Both the position numbers and the translations under genes were made by a program. Below the pieces are notes generated by a model. It did not search any database, was not told where the DNA came from, and saw nothing but the letters and a program-made list of their open reading frames with translations. Of a stretch of DNA of 64,000 nt, positions 2,040 through 49,682 are shown piece by piece (position 1 is the first letter of the stretch; every line of letters begins with the position of its first letter). Where the stretch lies: the NCBI GenBank assembly GCA_945873755.1, contig CAMCEM010000001.1:19469-83468 (forward strand), read 5' to 3'. Source of the DNA: Chitinophaga pinensis. Its GTDB lineage: Bacteria; Bacteroidota; Bacteroidia; UKL13-3.

Positions 2040-2183
2040 GAATCTGGGCAACCTATTTTTCCTGATAATTTATTTGATGTGGTTTTTGCAGAATCTGTTT
2101 TTGGGGTATTAGAACATGACACATTAATTAACTTAATGCTAGAAACTAAAAGTGTTTTGAAACCAAATGGTATTTTTAAGTAA
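2040..2183 (+). pseudogene. remnant of a class I SAM methyltransferase (C-terminal half of a Methyltransf_11-like domain)
   Basis: The frame reads ESGQPIFPDNLFDVVFAESVFGVLEHDTLINLMLETKSVLKPNGIFK**. It is bounded by TAA at 2037-2039 and TAA TGA at 2181-2186. There is no start codon, no upstream SAM-binding motif, and several stops upstream in the same frame. ORF 2193-2396 continues in the same frame and may be the old C-terminal tail. Confidence 0.5.
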
Positions 2184-2435
2184 TGATACAATTTGAAAAC
2201 TATTTACTTCTTTAAATACAATCAAATTAATAAACTAGAACAAAAATCTAATGATTTTACTTCAAAAAAACTTTATAACCTAACTAACCTAGTTCAACTT
2301 CTTAAAGAATTTATTTATAGAATAAAGCAGAAACTTTTTCATAAAAAAGATGGCGTTTATTTGGAAAATTACATTTTTATTGAACAATCATTATAAACCA
2401 AACAAGAATAAATTGAGTATAATTGTAACGGCATT

Positions 2436-3599
2436 ATGAGTTTTAACTATAAAAATTATTTTTATTTATTTTTTGTGTTTGTTTGTTTAACAATGGTTGC
2501 TGATGCTTGTAAAAAAAGCAATGAAACATATTTGAATGATGATAAACTAACCATCAATTTGAAATGGAATAAAGCCTACACCACCGAAACAAAACAAATG
2601 GTTGAAACAGGTTTATTGTGGTCGTTCAGTTTTTTGGGTGCTAATTTACCAATGGGAAGTTTCAATGAATCTAAGGTTTGGAATAATGATATTGTTACCA
2701 TCAACTTTAACAAACTTGGATTCAATATTGAAGCAACAACAGCGCTGTCAAAATTAATTGCTGCTTTTAAACTAAGTGAAGAATATAAAAAAATGGGTGC
2801 GATAGACATAGGCAGGTTTATAGCTTTAACACTAAATTCCTCCAATCATTATTATGCTATTACAGGAATTGCAAAAACATTTCATCAATTTAAAACAGGA
2901 AAAGTGTTCGACAGCAAACAATTTTTGGCTACCAATTCATCCATTTCATCACACGACAGATTGATTGATTTACCTGATAGCAATAATTTAGATTACAGAA
3001 AAGATGCTTATGTTTCGAACGAATGTGAAGGGAAAATAAGTGAAGGAAAAAACAAAATCACTTCGTTTGAAGTAACTGAACAAATGAAAAATGGCCAGTT
3101 TAGATATGCTATTTATGATACTTCAGGATATCTTTTAACTGCAGCAAATGGTGCAGCTGGTAAGCCAGCCAAATGTTTGTGGTGTCATGAATCAAATATT
3201 CAAACTTTATTTACAAATCAAGTGGATGAGCCAGGTTATTATGGAGCTGAGCAGTTTAAATACATTGTTTCAAGAAACACAATTACACTTAATAATTACA
3301 GAAATTCTTTGCAAAGCGATATAGATTTTATTAAAAAACAGGACCACACACAAATTGAACTTTTGTATATTAGTTTTATGGAAACTTCGGCCGAACGTTT
3401 ATCAAACGAATGGGGAATAAGTGTTACTGAAATACAAACTTTATTAGCTGGAATTCAAACTCATGATCATGATGAATTTACTTTTTTAAAGAATCTTTAT
3501 TATAGAAACGACATTGAAAAATTTGCTCCATTTTCAAGTTTACGTGCGCCAGATTCTGCACGAGAAACTTCTCTCTACGAACCCAATTTAATTCATTAA
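2436..3599 (+). CDS. hypothetical exported protein/lipoprotein with a single CxxCH motif
   Basis: 387-aa ORF. The N-terminus is hydrophobic and ends in VADAC (lipobox-like). KCLWCHES contains CxxCH. No family recognised. Confidence 0.5.
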   Translation: MSFNYKNYFYLFFVFVCLTMVADACKKSNETYLNDDKLTINLKWNKAYTTETKQMVETGLLWSFSFLGANLPMGSFNESKVWNNDIVTINFNKLGFNIEATTALSKLIAAFKLSEEYKKMGAIDIGRFIALTLNSSNHYYAITGIAKTFHQFKTGKVFDSKQFLATNSSISSHDRLIDLPDSNNLDYRKDAYVSNECEGKISEGKNKITSFEVTEQMKNGQFRYAIYDTSGYLLTAANGAAGKPAKCLWCHESNIQTLFTNQVDEPGYYGAEQFKYIVSRNTITLNNYRNSLQSDIDFIKKQDHTQIELLYISFMETSAERLSNEWGISVTEIQTLLAGIQTHDHDEFTFLKNLYYRNDIEKFAPFSSLRAPDSARETSLYEPNLIH

Positions 3600-3615
3600 A
3601 ATTCAAAATTCATTT

Positions 3616-5112
3616 ATGAATAAAATAATACTATTTAACCCACGAAGCGCCAATAAAAAATATAGAATTCCTAATTCTATATTACAAGTTGCTGCCTCCA
3701 TCAATGATCAGTATAGTTGGGTAATTGTTGATGGAAATAGGGAACTAAATCCACATAATAAGCTAACTGAAAGTATAACCAACGAAACAAAATATATTGG
3801 GTTTACTGTAATGCCTGGTCCACAGTTAAAACAAGCCATTCCTTTTGCTAAATTACTAAAACAAAAACACCCGCAATTAACCATGATTTGGGGCGGATAT
3901 TTTGCTTCTAATCAATATAAGTCTGTGCTAGAGTCAGGATATGTAGACTATGTGATTAACGGACCTGGCGATTATGCTTTTCCTGCTTTAATTAAATCGT
4001 TAGAAAAAAATTCAACTGTTGACGAAATAGAAAATTTGATTTACATAAAGAATGGACATATTCATAAAACTAAAAAAGCAGAATTAGTAAATTACGATGA
4101 TTTAAAACCTTTACCATACGATCAATTGGATACCATGTATTCGATTGAAAAATATTTAGGGAAAACATATTTAGGTAATAAAACATTGGCTTATCATAGT
4201 AGTTTTGGATGCCCATTTACATGTTCATTTTGTGCTGTGGTTCCTATTTATAATGCCAAATGGAAAGGAAAATGTGCCCAAGGTATTTACGATGATATTC
4301 GATTAATGAAGTTAAAATGGGGTGCTGATTCCATCGAATTTCACGACAATAATTTTTTTGTTTCTGAAAAAAGAGTCATTGAGTTTTCAAATTTAATGAT
4401 GAATGAAAACATGATTTGGTGGGGTGAAGGACGAATAGATACCATTCATAAATACAAAGACGAGACGCTTGCTTTAATGCGAGCTGCGGGTTGCAAAATG
4501 ATATTTTTTGGTGCCGAAACCGGCAATGATGAAGTGCTAAAAAAAATGGATAAAGGAGGCACTCAAACAGGGAAGCAAATAATTGAATTTGCTGCGCGAA
4601 TGAAAAAGTTCGATATTATTCCTGAGTACTCTTTTGTATTAGGAACGCCAGCAGATACTGAAGATGAAGTGATGAAACAAATTGATTTTGACATTGACTT
4701 TATTAAAAAAATAAAAACAGTAAATCCCGATACTGAAATTATTATTTACGTGTATAGTCCGGTACCAACAGAAGGTTCTGAAATGTATGAAAAAGTATTG
4801 GCAAGTGGTTTTAGGTTTCCTCAAAAACTAGAAGATTGGTTGGATGACAAATGGGAGAATTTTGATTTACGCAAAAACCCGTTAACACCATGGCTTACTC
4901 CTGCAATGATTGATAAAATCAAAAACTTTGAAACCGTTTTGAATGGATATTATCCAACCGTTTCTGATGTGAGAATGGGTAAAATTAAAAGACGAATTAT
5001 TAAGCAAATTTCAAAAATTAGGTATCAAAATAATTTATTCAAATATCCTTACGAAATAAAAGCATTACATAAAATTTGGAAATACCGACAACCAGAAATA
5101 GAAGGATTTTAA
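3616..5112 (+). CDS. B12-binding-domain radical SAM protein (class B) with a DUF4070-like C-terminal extension
   Basis: 498 aa. N-terminal Rossmann-like B12-type domain (ILFNPRS...IGFTVMPGPQL). CPFTCSFC (CxxxCxxC) lies near nt 4210-4233. Long C-terminal tail. Confidence 0.85.
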   Translation: MNKIILFNPRSANKKYRIPNSILQVAASINDQYSWVIVDGNRELNPHNKLTESITNETKYIGFTVMPGPQLKQAIPFAKLLKQKHPQLTMIWGGYFASNQYKSVLESGYVDYVINGPGDYAFPALIKSLEKNSTVDEIENLIYIKNGHIHKTKKAELVNYDDLKPLPYDQLDTMYSIEKYLGKTYLGNKTLAYHSSFGCPFTCSFCAVVPIYNAKWKGKCAQGIYDDIRLMKLKWGADSIEFHDNNFFVSEKRVIEFSNLMMNENMIWWGEGRIDTIHKYKDETLALMRAAGCKMIFFGAETGNDEVLKKMDKGGTQTGKQIIEFAARMKKFDIIPEYSFVLGTPADTEDEVMKQIDFDIDFIKKIKTVNPDTEIIIYVYSPVPTEGSEMYEKVLASGFRFPQKLEDWLDDKWENFDLRKNPLTPWLTPAMIDKIKNFETVLNGYYPTVSDVRMGKIKRRIIKQISKIRYQNNLFKYPYEIKALHKIWKYRQPEIEGF

Positions 5113-5774
5113 TGAAGAAATTTACGAAAAAATTCATTCAATTTACTGTTGGATATTTAATCTTATTATATTTAAAAAAAGATAGATTTTATACATACAA
5201 AGAGACCAAAATTCTTGTAAAAAAAGGCGTGTTTCATCCTGCTTTTTTCTTTAGTACTAAGTTTCTTATTAGCGCCATCAAAACGTTTAATTTAACAAAT
5301 AAAAAAGTATTGGAATTAGGCGCTGGCAGTGGTATTATTTCATTCTATTGTGATAAAAAAGGTGCAATTGTAACATCCAGTGATATTAGTCCAATTGCAA
5401 TAAATGGGTTGATTGAAAACAATAGAAAATTAAAAGCCAATGTAACCATTATTGAAAGTGATTTGTTCGATAAAATTCCAAATCAAGTGTTTGATTTCAT
5501 TATCATAAATCCACCTTATTATCCTAAAAAACCTAACAATGACGCTGAAAAAGCTTGGTATTGTGGCGAAAACTTTGAGTATTTCGAAAAACTATTTAAA
5601 CAAATGAATCCTTATAATAATGGCAATACTATTGTTTTTCTCTCTCTCTCCGAAGATTGTGATTTTAATAAAATTGCAAGTATTGCAAGCAAGAACAATT
5701 TTTTGTTAAAAAAGTATTTAAATAAAATGATTCTTTGGGAGCGTAATTTTATTTACAAAGTGATGCCAAAATAA
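5112..5774 (+). CDS. SAM-dependent methyltransferase, small-domain (HemK/RsmC-like) with an NPPY motif
   Basis: VLELGAGSGIIS (motif I) and FIIINPPYYP (N-methyltransferase motif IV). I prefer the ATG at 5112, which overlaps the upstream TAA (TAATG), over the track start at 5076. Confidence 0.7.
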   Translation: MKKFTKKFIQFTVGYLILLYLKKDRFYTYKETKILVKKGVFHPAFFFSTKFLISAIKTFNLTNKKVLELGAGSGIISFYCDKKGAIVTSSDISPIAINGLIENNRKLKANVTIIESDLFDKIPNQVFDFIIINPPYYPKKPNNDAEKAWYCGENFEYFEKLFKQMNPYNNGNTIVFLSLSEDCDFNKIASIASKNNFLLKKYLNKMILWERNFIYKVMPK

Positions 5775-5800
5775 CAATTATTACTATTTTCGGCTTTTAA

Positions 5801-6739
5801 ATGAAAATTACCTCTTCTCCCATATTGTTAACGCAACACCATATAAGCATTATCAAAACACTTATTTATTTTGATGTTTTTAGTTATCCTGTTAGTTTCA
5901 AGGAACTAAAAGATTTTATGCAAACGCCAATACAAGATGAAAAGTCGTTGTTAGAAGATTTAATACAATTATGCCAAAAGCAATTAATTATTAATTTTGA
6001 TGGTTATTATACCTTAAAAAACGACAAAAATTTGGTGATTAGAAGATTGGCAGGGAATAAACATGCAGAAAAATATGTACATAAAGCATTTAAAAACGCC
6101 AAATTGATTGGCTCATTTCCATATGTTCGTGGTGTTGGCATTTCAGGCTCTTTATCCAAAGGGTATATGGACGAAAGTGGCGATGTTGATTTTTTTATTA
6201 TTACTGAACCCGAAAGGTTATGGATAGCCAGAACATTATTGATTTTATATAAAAAAATATTTTTGTTAAATAGCAGAAAATATTTCTGTGTAAATTATTT
6301 TATTGATACTAACCATCTTGAAATTCCAGAAAAAAACATATTTACTGCAACCGAAATATTAACTCTCATTCCCGCCTATAACCAAAACGTTTTTAAAAGC
6401 TTTATTGAAAAAAATAGTTGGGCTCAAAAACATTTGCCTAATAAATTGCCAGTTAAAAACAATATTGAAAACGCATCCAATCATTTTATAAAAAGTAAGG
6501 TTGAAAAACTTTTGAACAATAACTCAGGAAGCTATATTGACTCGGTGTTTATGAAACTTACCCTAAAGAAATGGAAAAAGAAATTTAAACACATTGAAGA
6601 AACTGATTTTGAGCTTGCCTTGCGTAGCAGAAAATATGTTTCCAAACACCATCCACAAGGCTTTCAACAAAAAGTACTTTTGGCTATTGATAAAAAAATA
6701 GAAACATTTGAAATAGAACATAATCTTAAATTGAGCTAA
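5801..6739 (+). CDS. Pol-beta-superfamily nucleotidyltransferase domain protein
   Basis: GISGSLSKGYMDESGDVDFFII matches the G-S...D-x-D nucleotidyltransferase signature. 312 aa. Confidence 0.6.
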   Translation: MKITSSPILLTQHHISIIKTLIYFDVFSYPVSFKELKDFMQTPIQDEKSLLEDLIQLCQKQLIINFDGYYTLKNDKNLVIRRLAGNKHAEKYVHKAFKNAKLIGSFPYVRGVGISGSLSKGYMDESGDVDFFIITEPERLWIARTLLILYKKIFLLNSRKYFCVNYFIDTNHLEIPEKNIFTATEILTLIPAYNQNVFKSFIEKNSWAQKHLPNKLPVKNNIENASNHFIKSKVEKLLNNNSGSYIDSVFMKLTLKKWKKKFKHIEETDFELALRSRKYVSKHHPQGFQQKVLLAIDKKIETFEIEHNLKLS

Positions 6740-6746
6740 GAATTAA

Positions 6747-8201
6747 ATGACAGATATATTAATTACCCATTCTTATTTTTTAAGATTTGACCCAAAGCAG
6801 TGGAAAGCACAACAACCTTATCCACCTTTAGCTACGCTATTTGCTGCTGCTGTTTTATTGAATGAAAAATTCAACTTAACTTTTTACGACATGATGTTTG
6901 CCCAAAAGGCAAACGAAATAGAGGCAATAATAGCCGCTAACAAGCCCAAATATTTTGTTATTTACGATGATGGTTTTAACTACTTAACCAAAATGTGCTT
7001 AACCAACATGCGCGATGCTGCTTTTGAAATGGCAGCAATTGCCAAAAAGTTTGGCTGTAAAGTTATAGTTTCAAGTTCCGACTCAACCGACCATAGCGCT
7101 GATTATTTAAATGCTAATTTTGATTTTGTAATTGTTGGAGAAGGCGAGCAAACCTTAAGCGAATTGGTAAAAGCATTGAACAATAATGTAAATGATTTTT
7201 CTGCTATTAACGGATTGCGCTATAAAAATAATAGCACTATAACCGAAACTAATAAAAGAGAAAATTTAAAAGATTTAGATTTATTACCAATGCCAGCATG
7301 GCAATTGTTAAATATTGCCCCCTATAAAAATGCTTGGATGAAAAGCAAAGGGTTTTTTTCTATAAATATTGCCACAACACGAGGCTGCCCATACAAATGT
7401 AATTGGTGTGCCAAGCCTATTTATGGCAATAGGTATAACTCACGCTCACCTCAAAATGTTGTGAATGAGTTATTGTATTTAAAAACACATTTTAAATTCG
7501 ACCATATTTGGTTTTGCGATGATATATTTGGTTTAAAACCCAATTGGGTTTCGGAGTTTGCCAATTTGGTTGAATCGAATAATCTAAAACTAAAATATAA
7601 AATCCAATCGCGGGTTGATTTATTGTTGGAAGAAAGTTTGGCTACCAATAAAAAAGAAACCCAAATAGAAGCTTTGGCAAGGTCGGGTTGCGATGAAGTG
7701 TGGGTAGGAGCGGAGAGTGGCTCGCAAAAAATATTAGATGCCATGGATAAAGGAACTAAAATTGAGCAAATTGCAAAAGCAACTCAATTAATGAAACAAC
7801 ACGAAATAAAACCATGTTTCTTTCTGCAATTTGGCTACATTAACGAAAGGTATGATGATATAAAACTCACCTTGAAAATGTTATTAGAATTAATGCCGCA
7901 CGATATTGGTATTTCCGTTTCGTACCCATTGCCAGGCACCAAGTTTTACAATACAGTAAAAGAACAAATGATTGGTAAAACCAATTGGACAGATTCTGAT
8001 GAGTTAGCCATCATGTTTAATGCCACCTATCCAGCAGTGTTTTATAAAAAACTACAACGCTATGTGCATTATAAATTCAGGCAAAAACAGGCTTTTCTTG
8101 CATTGATAAATAATGGTAAAATAATTAAAGGCTTAAGTTTAACCTATCGAATTCCTCAAACTTTGTTAGCCTCGTGGAGCATTCAAAAACATGTTAAATA
8201 A
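6747..8201 (+). CDS. B12-binding-domain radical SAM protein (class B)
   Basis: 484 aa. N-terminal HSYFLRFDPKQ...PYPPLATLFAAAVL B12-type domain. CPYKCNWC lies near nt 7385-7410. Confidence 0.85.
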   Translation: MTDILITHSYFLRFDPKQWKAQQPYPPLATLFAAAVLLNEKFNLTFYDMMFAQKANEIEAIIAANKPKYFVIYDDGFNYLTKMCLTNMRDAAFEMAAIAKKFGCKVIVSSSDSTDHSADYLNANFDFVIVGEGEQTLSELVKALNNNVNDFSAINGLRYKNNSTITETNKRENLKDLDLLPMPAWQLLNIAPYKNAWMKSKGFFSINIATTRGCPYKCNWCAKPIYGNRYNSRSPQNVVNELLYLKTHFKFDHIWFCDDIFGLKPNWVSEFANLVESNNLKLKYKIQSRVDLLLEESLATNKKETQIEALARSGCDEVWVGAESGSQKILDAMDKGTKIEQIAKATQLMKQHEIKPCFFLQFGYINERYDDIKLTLKMLLELMPHDIGISVSYPLPGTKFYNTVKEQMIGKTNWTDSDELAIMFNATYPAVFYKKLQRYVHYKFRQKQAFLALINNGKIIKGLSLTYRIPQTLLASWSIQKHVK

Positions 8202-8982
8202 CGCTAGTTTTGATGCTTTAGCCAATAGTTACGATAACAATTTTACCCATAGTATAATTGGCACTTTGCAGCGCAATAAAGTTTGGAAATACTTGGAAGA
8301 AAACTTAGATGGCAATAAAGCGATGAATATTCTTGAAATAAATTGTGGCACAGGCGAGGATGCTTTATGGCTTGCAAGCAAAGGCCACCAAGTAATTGCA
8401 ACTGATATAAGCGAACAAATGATAGAGGTTGCAAAACAAAAAGCCAATATTCAAAAAGTAAATATCAATCCATTGGTTTGTAGTTTTGTTAATTTGGCTA
8501 CTGATTTAAATGGACAAAAGTTCGATATGATATTCTCAAATTTTGGTGGTTTAAATTGTTCCAATAATCAGGAGTTAACGCAATTAAACATCGATTTTGC
8601 TAAATTGTTAAAGCCTAAAGGATTGTTAGTAATGATTTTATTAGGTAAAAAGTGCTTTTTAGAAAACTTATATTTCCTATTGCGGTTTAACTTTAAAAAA
8701 CTAAACAGACGAAAACAAGCAACAGAAGCCTATTTAAGCCATAATAATTTTATAACCACATGGTATTATAATTATCAAGAAATGGCAAAAATATTCAACC
8801 TGTTTCAGTTAAAACAAAAAAAACCAATTGGGTTGTTTATTCCGCCTTCATATTTAGAACCATTGATTCAGAAAAATAAACTATTATTACCCATTATAAA
8901 ACGGTTAGAAAATGCTATTGGAAACATTAGTTTTTTGACAAATTATAGCGACCATATTTACATAGAAATGAAATTGAAATAA
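8191..8982 (+). CDS. class I SAM-dependent methyltransferase
   Basis: ILEINCGTGEDALWLASKGHQVIATDISEQM (motifs I/II). The start overlaps the upstream gene by 11 nt. Confidence 0.8.
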   Translation: MLNNASFDALANSYDNNFTHSIIGTLQRNKVWKYLEENLDGNKAMNILEINCGTGEDALWLASKGHQVIATDISEQMIEVAKQKANIQKVNINPLVCSFVNLATDLNGQKFDMIFSNFGGLNCSNNQELTQLNIDFAKLLKPKGLLVMILLGKKCFLENLYFLLRFNFKKLNRRKQATEAYLSHNNFITTWYYNYQEMAKIFNLFQLKQKKPIGLFIPPSYLEPLIQKNKLLLPIIKRLENAIGNISFLTNYSDHIYIEMKLK

Positions 8983-10367
8983 TGAAAGTAGTACTTACAC
9001 ATGGATATTTTATAAACGAAGATGCAAAAGAGCAGGAAATTATGCGCCCATATATTCCGCTTGGCATTTTGTACATATCGGCTTGGTTACAAAAACACCA
9101 ATACGACAATGAAATATTCGATTCTACCTTTCAGAGTTTCGAAAAACAAAAGGTATTTATTTTAGCACATAAACCCAATGTAATTGGGCTTTACACTAAT
9201 TTAATGACCAAATTAAACGTATTGCGTTTGATGCAGTTTGTTAAAAACGAACCTACATTGACCCATACCAAAATAGTATTGGGTGGTCCTGAAGTTCGTA
9301 ACCACGTAAAAAACTTTTTAACACATGGTGCCGACTATATTGTGTTGGGTGAAGGAGAAGAAACCATGTTGGAGTTGGTACAATTTTTAGATGGGAAAAC
9401 CAATAAAACTATTAATGAAATTGAAGGAGTTTCTTTTTTAAATGAACAACAAGAAGTAGTTCAAAATAAAGAAAGACTTAAGATAAAAGAACTATCTGAT
9501 TTGCCTTTTCCTAATAGAACCAAAGTAAACCTACAGTTGTATTTTGATGCTTGGAAACAAAAACACGGAACCAGTGCCATTTCAATTAATACCATGCGCG
9601 GTTGCCCTTACAGTTGTAATTGGTGTAGCAGAGCAGTTTACGGACAAAGTTACAGACGTAGAAGTGCTAAAAATGTAGTTGATGAAATTGAATGGATTCA
9701 AAGCAATTATGAAGTAGATTCTGTTTGGTTTGTAGACGATGTGTTTACTGTTAGCCACAAATGGCTTAATGAATTCAACGAAGAGCTGCAAAGTCGCAAT
9801 ATTAAAATGCCTTACGAGTGTATAACCCGAGCCGATAGAATGAACGAAGCGGTAATATTAGATTTAAAATCAAGTGGCTGCTTTAGGGTTTGGATTGGTG
9901 CAGAAAGCGGTTCGCAAAAAGTTATTGATTTAATGGATAGGCGGGTAGATGTAAACCAAGTGAGGGAAATGATTCAATTGTCGCAGTTGCATGGAATTCA
10001 AGCGGGTACTTTTATTATGGTGGGTTATCCTGGAGAAACCGAAGATGATATTTTTGAAACAGTCAATCATTTAAAAGTATCAAACCCTGATATTTTTACC
10101 ATAACAGTAGCTTACCCAATTAAAGGAACACCTTTGTACCAAGAAGTAGAAGATAGATTTATAGCCAATTTGCCTTGGGAAACCAGCACAGATAGGGATA
10201 TTGATTTTAAACGTACCTATTCGCGCAAGTATTATAACTATGCAGTAAGTATGATTGTAAATGAGGTTAATGCCTATAAAGCACAACAAAAAGGCGAAGT
10301 ATTAAAAATGTCGAAAGCAAAACTAAAAGCAGTTATTCAAAGAGGAAGAATGTATTTAGCAAGATAA
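8982..10367 (+). CDS. B12-binding-domain radical SAM protein (class B), paralogue of 6747-8201
   Basis: 461 aa. N-terminal HGYFINEDAKE...PYIPLGILYISAWL. CPYSCNWC lies near nt 9602-9625. The ATG overlaps the upstream TAA (TAATG). Confidence 0.85.
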   Translation: MKVVLTHGYFINEDAKEQEIMRPYIPLGILYISAWLQKHQYDNEIFDSTFQSFEKQKVFILAHKPNVIGLYTNLMTKLNVLRLMQFVKNEPTLTHTKIVLGGPEVRNHVKNFLTHGADYIVLGEGEETMLELVQFLDGKTNKTINEIEGVSFLNEQQEVVQNKERLKIKELSDLPFPNRTKVNLQLYFDAWKQKHGTSAISINTMRGCPYSCNWCSRAVYGQSYRRRSAKNVVDEIEWIQSNYEVDSVWFVDDVFTVSHKWLNEFNEELQSRNIKMPYECITRADRMNEAVILDLKSSGCFRVWIGAESGSQKVIDLMDRRVDVNQVREMIQLSQLHGIQAGTFIMVGYPGETEDDIFETVNHLKVSNPDIFTITVAYPIKGTPLYQEVEDRFIANLPWETSTDRDIDFKRTYSRKYYNYAVSMIVNEVNAYKAQQKGEVLKMSKAKLKAVIQRGRMYLAR

Positions 10368-10424: not shown

Positions 10425-12647
10425 ATGAAAAAAGGAATACTTTACTTCACATTATTTTTTAGCTTTTTGTTGGGCAATGCACAAGTTAATCAAACGAATA
10501 AACTCTCAGCTAATTTAATGCAATTGCTTGCCAAACCGAATGCTATAAATAGTAGTAATAAAGCCGTTTTATCAAAAATAAAAGGGGAAACTTTTGTTAG
10601 TACTTTAATAAAAGTTACTCCTCAAATAAATGAAAAAAGCATTACCCAATTAGGTGCATACATTGGCACAAAAGCGGGTAATATTTGGACCGTTCAAGTT
10701 CCAATCTCTCAATTACAAAAGTTTATTGCCATTACCCAAATTGATTATATTCAACTAGACGAACCCATAGCAAGTAATTTAGATGCAGCTATTAAATCGG
10801 CAAGGGCAGATTCTGTGCAGAATGGTATCAATTTGCCTTTGGCATATTCAGGTAAAGGTGTGGTTGTGGGAATTATTGATGCGGGTTTTGACTACACACA
10901 TCCTACTTTTTACGATACATCAGGAACTAATTTACGCATAAAACGCGTTTGGGAACAACACAACGATGGTACGCCTCCAATTGGTTATAATTATGGGAAC
11001 GAAATAAGCGATAATGCTACCATGTTAGCCAAAGGTTTTGAAGTAAATAGTTTTTCACATGGCACGCACGTGGGCGGAATAGCTGCTGGATCGGGTTATG
11101 GAACCAATAAAAAATACCGAGGTTTAGCTTACGAAAGCGATTTAGTAATAGTTGGTATTAAACCTGAAAAAACAGAATGGAAAACCTCTGGAATGGCCAG
11201 TATTTTAGATGGTATGAATTATATTTACAACTATGCAAAATCAGTAAATAAACCTGCTGTAGTTAATTTAAGTTGGGGCAATTCTATTGGTCCAAATGAC
11301 GGCAGTTCCTTATTCAGCCAGGCTTGTAATAATATGGTTGGTGAAGGAAAAATATTTGTTTTATCAGCTGGAAATAATGGCGATGAAAATATTCATATTC
11401 AAAAAACATTTACCAATACCGATACTGCTTTACATAGTTTTGTTACTTTCCCAACTATCAATGGCGAAAAGCGCAACTGGATTGATGTTTGGGGCGAAGT
11501 GGGTAAGCAATTTTGTTTAAAAATTAGTTTATATAATGGCTCAACAGTGAGCAGTGCAACAACTGATATTTGTTTAAATAATAATACATTAGATACTTTT
11601 TTGATAGGCTCAAAAAACGATACCTGCTTTTTAACCATCACTGCTAAAGCCGCTGATTATAATGGCAAGCCACATATTTTAGTAGATGTATTTAGTAAAA
11701 CAGCAGATAGATTTTGTGTAAGTGTGTTAGGACAAAGCGGTTTGGTGCATATGTGGCAAGGTTTTGTAAACGACTATAATGGTTATTATGGAGAGTTTAC
11801 TGCAGGCGGTTTCCCATGGGGAACTGCAGGAAATAGCAATTATACTTTAGGCGAAATGGCAAGCACACAATCAGCAATAACTGTGGCGGCTTATGCTTCT
11901 AAAATTACATTTAAAAACTTAGCGGGTTCTAACCAAAGTTATTCGGGTTATGCTTTTGTGGGTCAAATTACACCCTTTTCAAGTAAAGGTCCTACGGTGG
12001 ATGGGAGAATTAAGCCAGATATAACAGCACCAGGAATGACCATTGCTTCTGCTGTTAACTCGTTTGATGTTTCTTATTTATTGGGTGGAAGTAATTATGC
12101 GCAAAGTGTTGCCAAGTTTACTTTTGCTAAAAATAATCGTGAATATTATTATGCTGAAGCAAGTGGCACATCTATGTCATCGCCAATGGTTACAGGAATT
12201 GTGGCTTTATTGCTGCAAGCAAATCCTAAACTGACTCCAGCATTAATTAAAAACATTATTTTTAAAACAGCCATTACCGATATTTATACCAAACAACCTG
12301 TTGATTCAAGCAGATGGGGTGCGGGTAAAATTAATGCTTATGCTGCTATTAAGCTCACCATTGCTACTATTGGAGTAACCGAACAAAAGTTTACTCAAAC
12401 CCAAATTAATTTATTTCCAAATCCTACTTCGGGCAGTTTTCAGTTGTATTGCGAAGCAATCCAAAACAATGATTTGCAAGTAACCATTACCGATATTATG
12501 GGCAAAACCATTCAACAACATAATTGGAATGCAAGTGCTTCGAATAATACCCTTACCATTGATTTAGGAGACGAAAACAAAGGAGTTTATTTTGTGAGTA
12601 TTGGCAATGGTTTTAGCAACGAGGTGCGCAAAGTATTGGTTTATTAA
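10425..12647 (+). CDS. secreted subtilisin-like S8 serine peptidase with a T9SS C-terminal sorting domain
   Basis: Signal peptide present. Catalytic triad contexts are IIDAGFD, HGTHVGG and GTSMSSPMVTG. The C-terminus (NLFPNPTSGSFQL...GVYFVSI...KVLVY) resembles a Por/T9SS CTD. Confidence 0.85.
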   Translation: MKKGILYFTLFFSFLLGNAQVNQTNKLSANLMQLLAKPNAINSSNKAVLSKIKGETFVSTLIKVTPQINEKSITQLGAYIGTKAGNIWTVQVPISQLQKFIAITQIDYIQLDEPIASNLDAAIKSARADSVQNGINLPLAYSGKGVVVGIIDAGFDYTHPTFYDTSGTNLRIKRVWEQHNDGTPPIGYNYGNEISDNATMLAKGFEVNSFSHGTHVGGIAAGSGYGTNKKYRGLAYESDLVIVGIKPEKTEWKTSGMASILDGMNYIYNYAKSVNKPAVVNLSWGNSIGPNDGSSLFSQACNNMVGEGKIFVLSAGNNGDENIHIQKTFTNTDTALHSFVTFPTINGEKRNWIDVWGEVGKQFCLKISLYNGSTVSSATTDICLNNNTLDTFLIGSKNDTCFLTITAKAADYNGKPHILVDVFSKTADRFCVSVLGQSGLVHMWQGFVNDYNGYYGEFTAGGFPWGTAGNSNYTLGEMASTQSAITVAAYASKITFKNLAGSNQSYSGYAFVGQITPFSSKGPTVDGRIKPDITAPGMTIASAVNSFDVSYLLGGSNYAQSVAKFTFAKNNREYYYAEASGTSMSSPMVTGIVALLLQANPKLTPALIKNIIFKTAITDIYTKQPVDSSRWGAGKINAYAAIKLTIATIGVTEQKFTQTQINLFPNPTSGSFQLYCEAIQNNDLQVTITDIMGKTIQQHNWNASASNNTLTIDLGDENKGVYFVSIGNGFSNEVRKVLVY

Positions 12648-21747: not shown

Positions 21748-22377
21748 ATGAAAAAGAATTTTGTATTACTTTTTGTTTCAACAATGCTTTTGTTTGCCTG
21801 TGGCAATAACAATTATTTTGACAGATGGCCAGGCCAAAAACTCAACTCTTTTCCTGCCGAAATGCAAGGGAACTACAAGTTAAATGTTGGATTTTTTTCT
21901 GATATTTTTTCGAAAAAAAAAGACAGTATTTTATTTTTAACTATTGATGAAAATAGTATTCACGAAATAAATAAAGACGTGAACTTTGAAAATTTATTGA
22001 GCGATAGTTTGGTACTTTCTAAGCTTGGAAAATATTATATAATCAGCTCAAAAAAAACGGATAATAACGGATATTGGACCATTGGGTATTTTACAATGGT
22101 AAAAGGAGGAATGAATTACAGTCCGTATTTAGGAGTTGATAAAGTGAAGGAAGATAATTTGGCGAAATATTTAAATTTGGTTGCTACCTACAAAACAGGA
22201 AAAACTTTGGTAAATGCATTGCCTTTAAAGGACAGACAAGTTTTTTATTCAACAAGTTCTGATACCATAAAATATTATGAAATGGATGATACTCCTTTTT
22301 TAGAATTTTTAGAAAACGAAAAGGCCCAAACCATTATTAAGTTTAATAAAATTTACCCTAAAAAGAAAAAGAAATAA
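21748..22377 (+). CDS. hypothetical lipoprotein
   Basis: Signal peptide ends in LFACGNN (lipobox). 209 aa. No family recognised. Confidence 0.5.
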   Translation: MKKNFVLLFVSTMLLFACGNNNYFDRWPGQKLNSFPAEMQGNYKLNVGFFSDIFSKKKDSILFLTIDENSIHEINKDVNFENLLSDSLVLSKLGKYYIISSKKTDNNGYWTIGYFTMVKGGMNYSPYLGVDKVKEDNLAKYLNLVATYKTGKTLVNALPLKDRQVFYSTSSDTIKYYEMDDTPFLEFLENEKAQTIIKFNKIYPKKKKK

Positions 22378-22785
22378 ATGCAAAGACCAGTTAGAGTTTT
22401 AGTGGCTAAAGTAGGATTAGATGGCCACGACAGAGGGGCTAAAGTAATTGCAACTGCCCTTCGCGATGCGGGTATGGAAGTTATATATACAGGCTTGCGC
22501 CAAACGCCCGAAATGGTTGTTCAAGCAGCTTTGCAAGAAGATGTTGATGCAATAGGAGTAAGTATTCTTTCAGGGGCGCACAATACTGTTTTTCCAAAAT
22601 TGCTACACTTAATGAAACAAGAAGGAATGAACGATGTGTTATTAACTGGTGGCGGAATTATTCCAAACGAAGACATTGAAGAATTAACAAAATTAGGTGT
22701 TGGAAAACTATTTACACCCGGCACACACACCCACGAAATAGCCGAATACATTAAAGAATGGGTAAAAACAAATAGGAGTTTTTAA
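22378..22785 (+). CDS. stand-alone cobalamin-binding domain protein (methylmalonyl-CoA mutase C-terminal domain type)
   Basis: [17 protein letters not shown] carries the DxHxxG B12-binding motif. 135 aa. The ATG directly follows the upstream TAA. Confidence 0.85.
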
Positions 22786-25073: not shown

Positions 25074-25910
25074 CTACAACAAATTAAAACTATGGCGAAA
25101 ATATGAACCAAAAAACAAAGCATATTTCTTTTTATCAGAAATTCGAACTCTGTTCTCCATAATTGATTCTGCAGGCAAATCCATAATTTTACTTAATAAC
25201 TGTGAGTAATAAATATAAGCTACATAAACACCAAAACGAGCATCTTTAGGAAGTTTTTTTATTCCTTCATAGCCCATTTTAAAATCGTTTAAAATGTCAT
25301 CTTCTATTTCCTCTTTTGTTTCTGTGTTAAAACCATTTGAACGCAATTGAGGAAAATAAACTCTGCCAAGTGCTTCAGAATCTGCTTTAAAATCGCGCAA
25401 GAAGTTTATTTTTTGAAAAGCCGATCCTAATTTCATGGCATAAGGTTTTAACTCTTCGTATACGGTTTTGTTTCCTTCGGTAAAAACACTTAAACACATT
25501 AAACCAACTACTTCGGCCGAGCCTAATATGTATTCTTCATATTTTAATTGGTCGTATTGGCTTTTTTCTAAATCCATTTCCATACTTTTTAAAAAAGTTT
25601 CAATGGTCCAATGGTCAATATTGTATTTATTTACAACGTCTTGAAATGAATTTAATATTGGATTTAAACTAATTTTTTGTTCAATGGCTTTATAAGTGTC
25701 AATTTTAAAATCGGATAATAGTTGTTTTTTATCAAAATTATGAAAAGAGTCTACTATTTCATCAGCCAAACGCACGAAACCATACACCCCATAAATTGGG
25801 TCGTGGAAACGGTTTGCCAAAAATTTAATTCCCATTGAAAAGGAAGTACTGTATGTTTTGGTTACCAATTTGCTGCTCATTCGAGAAACATTATCGAACA
25901 ATAGTTTCAT
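25074..25910 (-). CDS. crtB: phytoene synthase
   Basis: YGFVRLADEIVD and LGSAFQKINFLRDFKAD (squalene/phytoene synthase signatures). Adjacent to crtI. Confidence 0.85.
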   Translation of the reverse strand: MKLLFDNVSRMSSKLVTKTYSTSFSMGIKFLANRFHDPIYGVYGFVRLADEIVDSFHNFDKKQLLSDFKIDTYKAIEQKISLNPILNSFQDVVNKYNIDHWTIETFLKSMEMDLEKSQYDQLKYEEYILGSAEVVGLMCLSVFTEGNKTVYEELKPYAMKLGSAFQKINFLRDFKADSEALGRVYFPQLRSNGFNTETKEEIEDDILNDFKMGYEGIKKLPKDARFGVYVAYIYYSQLLSKIMDLPAESIMENRVRISDKKKYALFFGSYFRHSFNLL

Positions 25911-25963: not shown

Positions 25964-27457
25964 TTAATCATTCGCTAAAAAATCTTTTACAATTAAATTA
26001 GCAGCCACATTGCCGCTAATAATACTTGGCGGAACTCCTGGCCCAGGAACTGTTAACTGACCTGCAAAATACAAATTATTCAATTTATTACTTTTAATTC
26101 GGGGTTTTAAAATGGCAGTTTGGGTTAATGTATTTGCTAAACCATAAGCATTTCCTTTGTACGAAAAATAGTCAGACTTAAAATCGTTGATACCAAAACT
26201 GCGTTTGTAAACCACATTTTCTTTAATACTTTGTCCTGTAAATTTCTCTAAACGTTCCATCATCATATCAAAGTAAAGTTCACGTTTTTCCTCCGAATCG
26301 TCAGTTAACTCGGTAGAGATTGGCACCAACAAAAATAAATTTTCGTGTCCATGTGGAGCAGCTGTATCATCGGTTTTTGAAGTAACAGAAGCATAAAACA
26401 ATGGGTTTTCTGGCCATTTAATATTGGTATAAATTTCATCAGCATGTTTGTTAAAATCAGTATCAAAAAATAAATTGTGGTGTAACAAACCGTCAATTTT
26501 TTTATTTAATCCCACATAATATAAAACACAACTAGGAGCTAATTTTCTATCGTTCCAATATTTTGGAGAATATTGTTTGTCTTTGTCATTTAGTAAATTT
26601 TGTTCAATGTGGTTATAATCACCTGCTGCAACAACTACATCGGTTTCAAAAGTTTCATTTTCGGTTTCAACCGATACCACTTTGCCATTTAAAGAGTTAA
26701 ATTTTTTAACTGTCGCATTTAGCTTGAACGTAACACCTTGTTGCTTTGCAATACTTTCAAAGGCTTCAACAAATTTAAACATCCCACCATTCGGATACCA
26801 AGTTCCTAGGCTCATATCTGCATAATTCATTAAACTATACAAAGCAGGAGTATTGCTTGCCAAAGCACCCAAAAACAAAACGGGAAACTCCAATAGTTCA
26901 ACTAAAAAAGGATGGGTAACAAATTGGCTAATATGCTTTTTCATACTAGTGAGCACATCCATTTTTAAAAGCCCGTTTAGCAACCTTATGTCTGCGTATT
27001 CAAACAAACTTAAACTTGGTTTATAAACTAAATCGTTAATACCAACTTCGTATTTATAAGCAGCCTCTTTTAAAAACTTTTGCAATTTTTTACTGCTTCC
27101 GGGTTCAAAACGTTCAAAAAGCGCTTCAATTCCAGGCATATCAGCAGGAATGTCAATACCTTCACCATTTTTCCAAATTACTTTGTAGCTAGGGTCTAAC
27201 CTTATTAATTCATAGAAATCGGAAGTGGTTTTACCAAAATCGTTGTAAAACTTTTCAAACACATCGGGCATCCAATACCAACTAGGACCCATATCAAAAG
27301 TAAAACCATCGGATTTAAACTGACGGGCTCGCCCACCAACAGAACTATTTTTTTCAATAATTGTAACCGAAAATCCTGCTTTAGCTAGGTACGAAGCCGC
27401 ACTCATTCCTGCAATTCCTGCGCCTATAACTACCGCTTTTTTATTTTTAATTGTCAA
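25964..27457 (-). CDS. crtI: phytoene desaturase
   Basis: VVIGAGIAGMSAASYLAKAGFSVTIIEK FAD fold, a C-terminal GQLTVPGPGVP motif, 497 aa. Confidence 0.9.
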   Translation of the reverse strand: MTIKNKKAVVIGAGIAGMSAASYLAKAGFSVTIIEKNSSVGGRARQFKSDGFTFDMGPSWYWMPDVFEKFYNDFGKTTSDFYELIRLDPSYKVIWKNGEGIDIPADMPGIEALFERFEPGSSKKLQKFLKEAAYKYEVGINDLVYKPSLSLFEYADIRLLNGLLKMDVLTSMKKHISQFVTHPFLVELLEFPVLFLGALASNTPALYSLMNYADMSLGTWYPNGGMFKFVEAFESIAKQQGVTFKLNATVKKFNSLNGKVVSVETENETFETDVVVAAGDYNHIEQNLLNDKDKQYSPKYWNDRKLAPSCVLYYVGLNKKIDGLLHHNLFFDTDFNKHADEIYTNIKWPENPLFYASVTSKTDDTAAPHGHENLFLLVPISTELTDDSEEKRELYFDMMMERLEKFTGQSIKENVVYKRSFGINDFKSDYFSYKGNAYGLANTLTQTAILKPRIKSNKLNNLYFAGQLTVPGPGVPPSIISGNVAANLIVKDFLAND

Positions 27458-36237: not shown

Positions 36238-37683
36238 ATGAATACAATGAGCGAACAGACATGTGAAACAGTATGGATTAATTGTTTGAAATTAATCCAA
36301 GATAACGTTAATCCCCAAAGCTTTAGAACTTGGTTTGAACCAATAAAACCAATAAAGTTAGACAATAAAATTTTAACAATTCAAGTTCCAAGCCAATTTT
36401 TTTACGAATGGTTAGAAGAACACTATGTTAGTTTATTGAAAAAAACATTAAAACAAATACTTGGAACAGGAGCAAGATTGGAGTATAATATAATAGTAGA
36501 AAACGGTACATCAAACTCTAATCCATATATAGTTAATTTACCAGGAAGTCAAAATTCAAAAATTGATTCGCAAGAAGGCGGACTAGGTTCAGCTTTAAAT
36601 ACCAATATAAAAAATCCATTTGTTATACCGGGACTAAAAAAGGTGAATATTGATTCGAACCTTAACCATAACTTAACATTCGATAATTACATAGAAGGCG
36701 ACAATAACCGTTTGGCAAGAGCCGCTGGGATGTCAGTTGCTTCAAAACCAGGAGGAACAGCATTTAATCCACTAATGTTTTTTGGTGAAACAGGTATGGG
36801 TAAAACCCACTTGGTGCATGCCATTGGAAATATGGTAAAGCAAAATAATAAAAACAAAATTGTATTGTATGTACCTATTGAAAAATTTACCAATCAGTTT
36901 GTAGAAGCAATTCGCAATAACTCCAATCAAGATTTTTTAAACTACTACCAACAAGTAGATGTATTAATTGTGGATGATGTTCAGTTTTTAGAAAACAAAC
37001 AAAAAACACAAGAAATTTTCTTTACCATATTTAACCATTTACATCAACAAGGCAAGCAGTTAATATTAACTAGCGATAGGGCACCAAAGGATTTAAAAGG
37101 AATGGACGAACGTTTGTTAAGTCGTTTTAAATGGGGTCTTTCAGCCGATATTCAATCACCTGATTTTGAAACTCGTTTGGCTATTTTAGAACATATGATG
37201 TATAACGATGGCATAAACTTACACAGAGATGTAGTAGAATATGTAGCGCATAACATTAATACAAATGTCCGCGAATTACAAGGTGCTTTAGTTAGTTTAT
37301 TGGCTCAATCATCGTTAAACAAAAAAGAAGTTACACTTGATTTAGCTAAGCAAATTCTTAAAAACTTTGTTAAGAATAACACCCGTGAAATTTCAATTGA
37401 ATTTATTCAAAAATTAGTTTGTGACTATTTTACTATTCCTGTTGAACAAGTAAAATCGAAAACACGTAAACGAGAAATTGTTCAAGCTCGCCAAATAAGC
37501 ATGTATTACGCTAAAGACTTGACTAAATCATCGTTAAAAACTATAGGAATGCATTTTGGTGGAAGAGATCACTCAACAGTTATTCATGCTTGCCAAACCG
37601 TAAATGATTTAATGGAAACAGACAAAAAATTCAGAGCCGATATTGAAGAAATTGGGAAAAGAATTAAAATGAACTTAGTTTAA
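36238..37683 (+). CDS. dnaA: chromosomal replication initiator protein DnaA
   Basis: GETGMGKTHL (Walker A), the AAA+ core, and the C-terminal DNA-binding helix ...GGRDHSTVIHA. Confidence 0.95.
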   Translation: MNTMSEQTCETVWINCLKLIQDNVNPQSFRTWFEPIKPIKLDNKILTIQVPSQFFYEWLEEHYVSLLKKTLKQILGTGARLEYNIIVENGTSNSNPYIVNLPGSQNSKIDSQEGGLGSALNTNIKNPFVIPGLKKVNIDSNLNHNLTFDNYIEGDNNRLARAAGMSVASKPGGTAFNPLMFFGETGMGKTHLVHAIGNMVKQNNKNKIVLYVPIEKFTNQFVEAIRNNSNQDFLNYYQQVDVLIVDDVQFLENKQKTQEIFFTIFNHLHQQGKQLILTSDRAPKDLKGMDERLLSRFKWGLSADIQSPDFETRLAILEHMMYNDGINLHRDVVEYVAHNINTNVRELQGALVSLLAQSSLNKKEVTLDLAKQILKNFVKNNTREISIEFIQKLVCDYFTIPVEQVKSKTRKREIVQARQISMYYAKDLTKSSLKTIGMHFGGRDHSTVIHACQTVNDLMETDKKFRADIEEIGKRIKMNLV

Positions 37684-41641: not shown

Positions 41642-41646
41642 TTTAA

Positions 41647-43488: not shown

Positions 43489-43494
43489 GGTATT

Positions 43495-47950: not shown

Positions 47951-47959
47951 TATTTTTTA

Positions 47960-49681: not shown

Positions 49682-49682
49682 T

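Follow-up and report, generated by a model that had tools for sequence, protein, structure and literature searches.

Cobalamin-dependent radical S-adenosylmethionine (SAM) enzymes form a very large family in which few functions have been assigned, and the members known to modify sugars come from antibiotic or hopanoid pathways (PMC9204698). The subject of this report is a block of seven genes packed on the + strand at positions 2436-10367 of a 64-kb window, which is the whole stretch of DNA that was analysed and is part of the 104.7-kb metagenomic contig CAMCEM010000001.1 (window position 1 corresponds to L090 position 7566). The block encodes three paralogous radical SAM proteins of predicted cobalamin (B12) type (rSAM_A, rSAM_B and rSAM_C), a nucleotidyltransferase (NTase) with a Pol-beta signature, two SAM methyltransferases and a predicted lipoprotein with a CxxCH motif (X387). 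Since the block sits in a cluster for a cell-surface sugar polymer and has no characterised match, it most likely builds a heavily modified surface sugar. On balance, with a little more than even confidence, we regard it as a tailoring cassette, so far uncharacterised, within a pathway that makes a polyprenol-linked surface glycan.

In the Fom1/Fom3 system of fosfomycin biosynthesis, a nucleotidyltransferase (the cytidylyltransferase domain of Fom1) stands beside a cobalamin-type radical SAM enzyme, Fom3, which methylates the nucleotide-activated compound cytidylyl-2-hydroxyethylphosphonate (PMC9204698). The cassette has the same kind of pairing, but its loci are without phosphoenolpyruvate (PEP) mutase or phosphonate genes, it has three radical SAM genes rather than one, and its NTase is a family-less Pol-beta-fold protein that is also found without radical SAM genes and fused to glycan enzymes. 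In the systems of GenK/GenD1 (gentamicin), AprD4 (apramycin), MoeK5 (moenomycin) and HpnJ (contraction of the glucosamine ring of hopanoids), radical SAM enzymes with B12 domains act on sugar carbons (PMC9204698), and the companions of the cassette, a GT4 glycosyltransferase, a carbamoyltransferase and a HemK-type N-methyltransferase, are reminiscent of these systems. The similarity, however, is at the superfamily level only, with curated cutoffs missed 3-10 fold, and the genes lie in a Bacteroidota envelope locus with Wzz, Wzy_C, Wzx-like and GT-C proteins rather than in an actinomycete antibiotic or a hopanoid cluster.

The polyprenyl-phosphate-sugar pathways represented by ArnC/ArnT (lipid A Ara4N), GtrA/B/C and the mycobacterial PpgS/Rv3779 resemble the cassette loci in their flanks. 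A small GT2, a flippase-like protein and a GT-C protein (PMT_2 or GT87) adjoin many of these loci, which suggests that a carrier-linked sugar is tailored in the cytoplasm before it is transferred in the periplasm. The GT2 of the cassette loci is, however, far below equivalog cutoffs, the window's cluster has a GT4 instead, and these pathways are not known to use radical SAM enzymes or a Pol-beta NTase. In the anaerobic dimethylbenzimidazole pathway, BzaC, BzaD and BzaE comprise one class I methyltransferase and two paralogous B12-type radical SAM enzymes; the cassette differs in having no bzaA/B or cobT beside it and in its glycan-biosynthesis context.

The individual parts belong to known superfamilies, and the placing of tailoring genes in a surface-glycan locus follows a familiar logic. 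No counterpart has been described for the combination of these parts, in which a CxxCH lipoprotein and a Pol-beta NTase join three B12-type radical SAM enzymes amid Wzx/Wzy/GT-C genes and which is conserved in two Bacteroidota orders. A full-text search of the literature, in an incomplete collection, returned no description of the cassette; a review of lipid radical SAM enzymes and a Bacteroidota fitness preprint contain no relevant mention, and a 2026 review of B12-dependent radical SAM enzymes does not use the words glycan, polysaccharide or sugar.

Gene organization of the cluster

The gene coordinates were taken from the list of open reading frames (ORFs) and from direct reading of the junction letters. 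All seven genes are on the + strand, in the order X387 (2436-3599), rSAM_A (3616-5112), an MTS/HemK-like methyltransferase (5112-5774), the NTase (5801-6739), which is the signature gene of the cassette, rSAM_B (6747-8201), the class I SAM methyltransferase MT25 (8191-8982) and rSAM_C (8982-10367), with spacings of 16, -1, 26, 7, -11 and -1 nucleotides (nt). An earlier note on this DNA had described a tightly packed same-strand block with two TAATG overlaps, that at 5110-5114 among them, and an 11-nt overlap, and reading of the junctions bore this out; the motifs that it listed (CPFTCSFC, CPYKCNWC, CPYSCNWC, NPPY, G-S...DVD and CxxCH, here CLWCH) were all located in the translations. The MTS methyltransferase starts at the ATG within TAATG 5110-5114, in agreement with a gene call of 220 amino acids (aa) on the same contig, and start/stop overlaps between core genes are also kept in Tenacibaculum. 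There is no terminator-like site on the + strand inside 2436-10367. No Rfam family, cobalamin riboswitch included, reached its gathering score anywhere in the window. A sigma-70 scan gave 50 sites, fewer than the 66 in shuffled sequence, and is uninformative since the model is not applicable to Bacteroidota promoters; a search for TAnnTTTG gave no useful site upstream.

The block is the downstream part of a larger unit. X387 had been taken for the operon leader, but it is not the first gene of the unit, since the co-directional cluster continues upstream past the window edge and starts about 5.2 kb before the window. Four further same-strand genes lie directly upstream on the window's contig. 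The first two encode a Wzz-like protein (24.9 bits, borderline against a cutoff of 25.5) and a Wzy_C protein (93 bits). The product of the third is a multi-pass membrane protein of 376 aa that falls into a Wzx-like cluster, and that of the fourth is a 468-aa EpsG/PMT_2-like membrane protein of GT-C-like type, whose orthologue in locus L004 passes PMT_2 (34.1 against 26.1 bits). The complete order is Wzz-like, Wzy_C, Wzx-like, GT-C-like, MT24, GT4, pseudo-methyltransferase, X387, rSAM_A, MTS methyltransferase, NTase, rSAM_B, MT25 and rSAM_C. With a leucyl aminopeptidase gene as the boundary on the 5' side and an S8 protease gene with a type IX secretion system (T9SS) domain on the 3' side, the unit extends over about 15.6 kb and has about 13 genes, all in the same direction; the seven genes are its 3' two-thirds. 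A chain-length regulator (borderline), a Wzy_C protein, a flippase-like protein and a glycosyltransferase, the content of a Wzx/Wzy-type locus, are therefore found in one co-directional cluster, and a like upstream arrangement of glycan genes is present in L004 and L084.

Between the membrane-protein genes and X387, the upstream glycosyltransferase and methyltransferase of the earlier note were both recognized by Pfam. MT24 (113-871, +), an accessory member of the cluster, is a Methyltransf_24-type SAM methyltransferase (PF13578, 47 bits against a cutoff of 26) with orthologues adjoining the cassette in L004, L022, L009 and the Chitinophagales locus L087; it is absent from L084 (GCA_040402875.1), a strain with an NTase 99% identical to that of the window. 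The GT4 glycosyltransferase (890-1936, +; Glycos_transf_1, Glyco_trans_1_4 and Glyco_trans_4_2 above cutoffs) is the sole Leloir-type glycosyltransferase of the window's cluster. The stretch at 2058-2390 (+), previously described as a decayed methyltransferase, is indeed a pseudogene remnant of a class I methyltransferase: tblastn with an intact orthologue gave E values of 2e-14 and 2e-7, residues 111-150 and 216-275 of the intact 275-aa L022 orthologue align with 65% and 42% identity, stop codons are present, and the N-terminal SAM-binding part is gone. The intact counterpart in L022 (5474-6301) lies between GT4 and X387. The pseudogene and the loss of MT24 amount to variation between strains of the sort that is typical of glycan loci.

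An S8 subtilase with a T9SS C-terminal sorting domain is encoded 57 nt after rSAM_C (10425-12647, +). It was considered as an operon member and rejected, since it lies next to the cassette only in very close relatives (L004, L084 and L085), and it is probably not part of the cassette; for the same reason it was left out of the unit.

The nucleotidyltransferase and its fusions

The NTase carries GSLSKGYMDESGDVD, and its residues G116, S119, D128, D130 and E185 are invariant in an alignment of 16 sequences. On the evidence of sequence, the protein belongs to the Pol-beta-fold superfamily, and it can be assigned to no described family. PF01909 is matched by all 16 family members, the window NTase itself scoring 19.4 bits, just under the cutoff of 21, and PF18765 is matched by 13 of the 16. 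No LicD (PF04991) match was found in the 16 members at E<=1, and a LicD-like phosphotransferase was rejected as an assignment. A profile of the family gave no sequence match in the PDB.

The AlphaFold2 (AF2) model of the NTase (predicted local distance difference test score, pLDDT, 83.8) consists of a winged-helix-like N-terminal domain, the NTase core and a helical C-terminal domain. The nearest folds are those of the MNT antitoxins and of the aminoglycoside and lincosamide nucleotidyltransferases ANT(4'), AAD(9), AadA and LinB, and the order of NTase core and helical C-terminal domain is that of ANT(4'). These matches are weak, however (E 2e-3 to 1e-1, 10-19% identity); for the aminoglycoside nucleotidyltransferase folds, E is 4e-3 to 1e-1 and the template modelling (TM) score about 0.25-0.33, with a root-mean-square deviation above 12 Å over full-length alignments. 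The NTase also differs from these proteins in its extra winged-helix-like domain and in being encoded in a biosynthetic operon rather than in a resistance or toxin-antitoxin context.

The family is large, with more than 6,698 homologues at 90% clustering and 1,305 clusters of 50% identity at E<=1e-30. In a search of the 50% representatives, the NTase domain was found fused to Bac_transf, an initiating phosphoglycosyltransferase, to a GT4 (P0303) and to a methyltransferase. Five clusters, with divergence down to 65% identity, carry the Bac_transf-NTase fusion; since they come from four independent sources (Logan, ENA, NCBI and JGI), the fusion is not an assembly artefact. The locus that encodes it reads Wzx-GT2-GT4-GT4-Wzy_C-[fusion]-epimerase. 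These domain fusions are the strongest single clue to a link with glycan assembly. The earlier note had left the product as a glycoconjugate, a lipid or a small molecule; the fusions, together with the Wzz, Wzy_C, Wzx-like and GT-C-like genes upstream, favour the first of the three.

Conservation and gene neighbourhood

In a collection with one genome per species, the NTase is found in at least about 475 matching stretches. The hosts belong to the Flavobacteriaceae, Crocinitomicaceae, Salibacteraceae, Chitinophagaceae and Saprospiraceae, with Tenacibaculum, Kordia, Aquimarina, Winogradskyella, Flavivirga, Confluentibacter, Dokdonia, Aureisphaera and Flavobacterium among the named genera; strains of Tenacibaculum, Kordia, Winogradskyella, Flavivirga and Confluentibacter are cultured carriers. 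Bacteroidota-like cassettes are also present in two contigs of metagenome-assembled genomes, labelled uncultured Bifidobacterium sp. (L005, NTase 77% identical) and Arenicella sp. (L027, 48% identical), which are probably mis-binned contigs rather than cases of lateral transfer.

Synteny was counted in 45 loci of at least 18 kb from Flavobacteriales and Chitinophagales, with hidden Markov models (HMMs) built from orthologue clusters. The order after the NTase is constant: rSAM_B follows it directly in 43 of the 45 long loci, MT25 lies between the two radical SAM genes in 40, and rSAM_C completes the series in 38. rSAM_A and the MTS methyltransferase always lie side by side; they were found within 10 kb in 12-15 loci, and X387 in 14. 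The cassette has two modules, one of NTase, rSAM_B, MT25 and rSAM_C, and the other of rSAM_A and the HemK-like methyltransferase, usually with X387. Dozens of genomes that are only distantly related share this order, so that the arrangement is more than chance, and the genes are syntenic in relatives. In some taxa, a second class I methyltransferase is added. In the Chitinophagales locus L087, rSAM_A, the MTS methyltransferase, the NTase and rSAM_B have stayed together with GT4, MT24 and a further methyltransferase. A Flavin_Reduct (PF01613) gene lies beside MT24 and the cassette in this locus (5663-6586, -); its product could be a supplier of reductant for the radical SAM or cobalamin cofactors.

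At least one glycan gene is present within 10 kb in 35 of the 45 long loci; GT4 orthologues are found in 18, and so, in 18, are GT-C proteins of the PMT_2 or GT87 type. A recurrent block directly after rSAM_C consists of X387, a 249-aa GT2, GT87 and a Wzx-like protein. The curated families closest to this GT2 are synthases of polyprenyl-phosphate sugars, namely PpgS, AglJ, dolichyl-phosphate hexose transferase and ArnC, at 36-60 bits, all below cutoff. Sets of GT2, GT-C protein and flippase also decorate lipids such as lipid A (ArnC, ArnT), and the cassette might accordingly modify a membrane lipid or the polyprenol carrier, so that its product would be no polymeric glycan but, for instance, a glycolipid whose head group is methylated or rearranged after the fashion of the hopanoid enzymes HpnJ, HpnP or HpnR. 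HpnJ is indeed among the top curated matches of rSAM_A and rSAM_B, all three radical SAM proteins match a ladderane-type family far below its cutoff, the core can stand alone away from glycan genes, and Tam41, a cytidine diphosphate diacylglycerol synthase of lipid metabolism, appears at rank 45 among the weak fold matches of the NTase. Lipid modification is nevertheless unlikely, because no squalene/hopene cyclase, fatty-acid, acyltransferase or prenyltransferase gene is among the recurrent neighbours (gene clusters in at least 6 of 83 loci), the Wzz and Wzy_C proteins of the window's cluster indicate a polymer or ligated glycan, and the fusion partners of the NTase are a phosphoglycosyltransferase and a GT4.

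A NodU-type carbamoyltransferase, SxtJ, DUF5989 and an SGNH-like gene co-occur with the cassette in several taxa, and the carbamoyltransferase is present in 14 of the 45 long loci. Together with the resemblance of the NTase fold to aminoglycoside nucleotidyltransferases and the place of AprD4 among the closest solved structures of rSAM_A and rSAM_C, it raises the alternative of a diffusible aminoglycoside-like or pseudo-oligosaccharide metabolite, made by GenK/GenD1/AprD4-type tailoring, AprI-type N-methylation, ANT-like nucleotidylation and TobZ/NodU-type carbamoylation. A precedent for the N-methylation is AprI, a HemK-family N-methyltransferase that acts on an aminosugar (PMC9338882) and is known for aminoglycosides. 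A diffusible product is decidedly unlikely, however: no cyclitol synthase, aminotransferase or dehydrogenase gene recurs in the loci, lipid-linked assembly in the periplasm is what the Wzz, Wzy_C, Wzx-like and GT-C proteins and the fusion to a phosphoglycosyltransferase point to, and a spread over at least about 475 species-level genomes is unusually broad for an antibiotic cluster.

The earlier note had found that none of the known contexts of such enzymes fits the window, and the comparison across genomes agrees. PEP mutase, polyketide synthase or nonribosomal peptide synthetase, hopanoid and chlorophyll genes do not recur in the 45 long loci, and PEP mutase and other phosphonate genes are absent both from the gene clusters in at least 6 of 83 loci and from the window's cluster. 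Neither the 45 loci nor the literature search placed the gene set within a characterised cluster. A defence system was considered and rejected, PADLOC giving only generic methyltransferase and radical SAM matches.

Radical SAM paralogues and partner methyltransferases

All three paralogues have a CxxxCxxC cluster (CPFTCSFC in rSAM_A, CPYKCNWC in rSAM_B and CPYSCNWC in rSAM_C) and match the Radical_SAM family PF04055 at 43, 62 and 74.4 bits, respectively, above the cutoff of 29.5. The B12-binding family PF02310 (cutoff 32.1) is matched by rSAM_A (35.7 bits) and rSAM_C (46.5 bits). The class B architecture proposed for all three thus holds for rSAM_A and rSAM_C; in rSAM_B the N-terminal domain is divergent, and its B12-type character is deduced by homology, since the N-terminus aligns with that of rSAM_C from residue 4. 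The alignment of rSAM_B with rSAM_C runs from residue 3-4 onward over 432 residues with 32% identity (E 1e-86), and rSAM_A is 24-27% identical to both. Since they are only 24-32% identical to one another, the three proteins are old paralogues. Identities between orthologues are far higher, at 49-95% (60-94% for rSAM_A), which, from these comparisons, makes the triplication ancient, with each copy retained separately. Use of cobalamin by the three proteins, and a role as methylase or in rearrangement, are predicted from sequence.

None of the three reached a curated NCBIfam cutoff, the best scores being 111-169 bits against cutoffs of 480-600. In the order rSAM_A, rSAM_B and rSAM_C, the scores were 111, 137 and 169 bits for BchE (TIGR02026, cutoff 481), 111, 120 and 139 for HpnJ (TIGR03471, cutoff 578) and 102, 96 and 159 for the PhpK-type P-methyltransferase (TIGR04479, cutoff 600). 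Lower scores were obtained with the PoyC-like B12-dependent radical SAM C-methyltransferases of ribosomally synthesized and post-translationally modified peptides (RiPPs; TIGR03975; 73, 77 and 96 bits, cutoff 282), the BzaD/BzaE lower-ligand enzymes (TIGR04385; 62, 74 and 103 bits, cutoff 450), the diol-dehydratase AprD4 (NF033070; 44, 58 and 76 bits, cutoff 500) and QCMT, the glutamine C-methyltransferase of methyl-coenzyme M reductase (TIGR04014; 55, 96 and 103 bits, cutoff 360). Assignment to the BchE, HpnJ, PhpK, RiPP, ladderane, BzaD, AprD4 or QCMT families was rejected, since all scores are below cutoff; in the HMM scan, no paralogue fell into a curated subfamily of known function.

The BzaD/BzaE scores bear on the idea, modelled on BzaC-BzaD-BzaE, that the core tailors a cofactor or aromatic small molecule, such as a quinone or the lower ligand of a cobamide. 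The pattern of a methyltransferase with two B12-type radical SAM enzymes is shared with that pathway, BzaD is among the sub-threshold matches (62-103 bits), the best curated match of MT25 is a corrinoid-protein-associated methyltransferase, and in L086 the core stands alone among housekeeping genes. This idea is extremely improbable, as the BzaD scores are far under 450 and are not the top matches, no BzaA/B, CobT or quinone genes are linked among the recurrent clusters, and the glycan linkage and the NTase fusions argue otherwise.

The nearest solved structures by sequence are QCMT (9ccb), AprD4, CysS, TokK and OxsB (E 2e-16 to 7e-6). Matches to AprD4 and QCMT in a phmmer search of the PDB have E values of 1e-16 to 5e-9, and for rSAM_C the closest are 9ccb (2e-16), identified as QCMT (PMC12931638), and AprD4 (7e-16). 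That the closest structure of rSAM_C is a protein-modifying enzyme, that HemK-family enzymes classically methylate protein glutamine, that the best fold matches of the NTase are the protein-AMPylating MNT antitoxins and that an S8 protease gene follows the operon could together point to a RiPP or a specific protein as the substrate, with QCMT/PoyC-like C-methylation, HemK-like glutamine N-methylation and MNT-like AMPylation. When ATG-started intergenic ORFs of 18-90 aa from 85 loci and the window were clustered, however, only the membrane peptide DUF5989 and noise from near-identical strains recurred, so that no conserved small ORF except DUF5989 lies beside the cassette. The RiPP radical SAM scores (73-96 bits) are well short of 282, only very close relatives have the S8 gene beside the cassette, and the fusions and neighbourhoods are glycan-related. 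A RiPP was rejected on the first two grounds, and we consider a peptide or protein substrate in general very improbable.

The two methyltransferases of the block are equally without a curated assignment. The MTS methyltransferase (PF05175, 53.5 bits) has an NPPY motif of the N-methylation type, and its HemK-related NCBIfam matches are below cutoffs. MT25 matches Methyltransf_25, Methyltransf_31 and Methyltransf_11 above their cutoffs, and its best NCBIfam match, at 58 bits (cutoff 180), is CpaM, a corrinoid-protein-associated methyltransferase.

L028, L030, L044, L053, L067 and L070 (Kordia, Aquimarina and Crocinitomicaceae) have a fourth, divergent B12-type radical SAM-like gene, with about 24% identity to rSAM_A, which lies a few kb past the end of rSAM_C and on the other strand. 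Its neighbour in L028 and L030, the two long loci from Kordia, is the 249-aa GT2.

The CxxCH lipoprotein

X387, which is 387 aa long, has a signal peptide and a conserved lipobox Cys; this residue, Cys25, is nearly invariant. Its hallmark is the invariant motif GKPxKCxWCHE, in which C247, C250, H251 and E252 are invariant, the two Cys and the His being present in 22 of 22 aligned sequences. Since the CxxCH motif is combined with an export signal, as in c-type cytochromes, X387 is likely to bind haem, and it may be described as a putative periplasmic or surface haem-c protein. It matches no Pfam or NCBIfam family, and none of its 513 homologues is named. In other genomes, it is usually encoded beside GT87 or PMT_2 genes.

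The AF2 model of X387 (pLDDT 89.4) has a beta-sheet domain followed by a helix that bears the CxxCH motif. Cytochrome P460 and cytochrome c'-beta would be the closest counterparts of this arrangement; cytochrome P460 (8gar) was at rank 2 in the Foldseek search of the PDB, at a non-significant level (E 0.25, TMt 0.36); this search gave no significant fold match. The cytochrome P460 family (PF16694) was detected faintly in one of 22 homologues (E 0.062), and a P460-like fold, suggested by the model, is a lead only. X387 differs from these cytochromes in being a predicted lipoprotein with additional helical domains, and its family profile has no sequence relative in the PDB.

Proposed pathway

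If the cassette tailors a surface glycan, the Pol-beta-fold NTase would nucleotide-activate, or nucleotidylate, a common sugar or sugar substituent on the cytoplasmic side. Unactivated carbons of the sugar unit would then undergo radical C-methylation or rearrangement, in a different reaction for each of the three B12-type radical SAM enzymes; GenK/GenD1, MoeK5 and HpnJ are precedents for such chemistry on sugars, and the cytidylyl-dependent Fom3 is one for a nucleotide-activated substrate (PMC9204698). The partner SAM methyltransferases would attach N- or O-methyl groups, a precedent being the action of the HemK-family enzyme AprI on an aminosugar (PMC9338882). The GT4, or a phosphoglycosyltransferase, would load the unit onto the polyprenol phosphate carrier, the Wzx-like protein would flip it across the membrane, and the GT-C-like and Wzy_C proteins would polymerise it or pass it to a periplasmic or outer-membrane acceptor. 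X387 would work at the extracytoplasmic stage as a haem protein.

Several observations weigh against this scheme. The fold matches of the NTase are weak (E ~2e-3, TM 0.2-0.3 on the query, Foldseek), and the proteins matched are O-adenylyltransferases and protein AMPylators rather than enzymes known to activate sugars. The NTase is also present in glycan loci without any radical SAM gene, so that its job is not simply to prepare a radical SAM substrate. A simple coupling of the Fom1/Fom3 type is for the same reason not sufficient, and the analogy with Fom3, from which the earlier note had read a possible meaning into the presence of the NTase, is weakened. The 13-gene cluster of the window encodes neither an initiating phosphoglycosyltransferase nor nucleoside diphosphate sugar-modifying enzymes. 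Ten of the 45 long loci have no glycan gene within 10 kb, and L086 carries the bare four-gene core among housekeeping genes, from which it follows that the core needs no glycan neighbours. The PF02310 score of rSAM_B is only 18.4 bits, below the cutoff, and the nearest structural relative of rSAM_C by sequence is the protein-modifying QCMT. The substrate, the order of the steps and every chemical step are inferred, and confidence in any specific reaction is lower than in glycan tailoring as such.

Tentatively, the proposal may be taken further. It is possible, at a clearly lower level of confidence than glycan tailoring itself, that the cassette makes an unprecedented sugar, multiply C-methylated, branched-chain or ring-rearranged, by a nucleotide- and cobalamin-dependent radical pathway in which the three B12-type radical SAM enzymes are non-redundant and a new haem-c lipoprotein family helps to complete the process outside the cytoplasm. 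If true, this would be the first B12-dependent radical SAM chemistry in bacterial cell-surface polysaccharide assembly, and for Flavobacteriia and Chitinophagia that are abundant in the sea and in fresh water, the structure of the cell surface would be tied to the supply of vitamin B12. Since many Flavobacteriia rely on external B12, the cassette may link B12 availability to the envelope, and such a link may bear on the recognition of ecologically dominant Bacteroidota by phages, grazers and hosts. Solving the cassette would, most likely, give new radical sugar chemistry, a new role of Pol-beta NTases in glycan assembly, and functions for several thousand proteins now called "hypothetical".

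Other features of the window

The dnaA gene (36238-37683, +; DnaA_N, Bac_DnaA and Bac_DnaA_C) is encoded in the window, and the chromosomal replication origin is probably near it; the GC-skew profile has no clean switch at 2-kb resolution. A co-directional glycan-degradation block (40376-51608, -) encodes a GH2_C-domain protein, a GH16 with a T9SS sorting domain, a GH3 and a CBM30 protein, and after it come the genes of three large proteins (344, 581 and 641 aa) for which no Pfam match is on record.

A stand-alone 135-aa B12-binding-domain protein (PF02310, 90 bits; 22378-22785, +) is encoded after a family-less 209-aa protein, the pair occupying 21748-22785. The pair is about 2.3 kb from the genes for a phytoene synthase (SQS_PSY, 25074-25910, -) and a phytoene-desaturase-like amino oxidase (25964-27457, -). 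It could be a split CarH/LitR-like B12 photoreceptor that controls the carotenoid genes, which would make it a second B12-related feature of the window.

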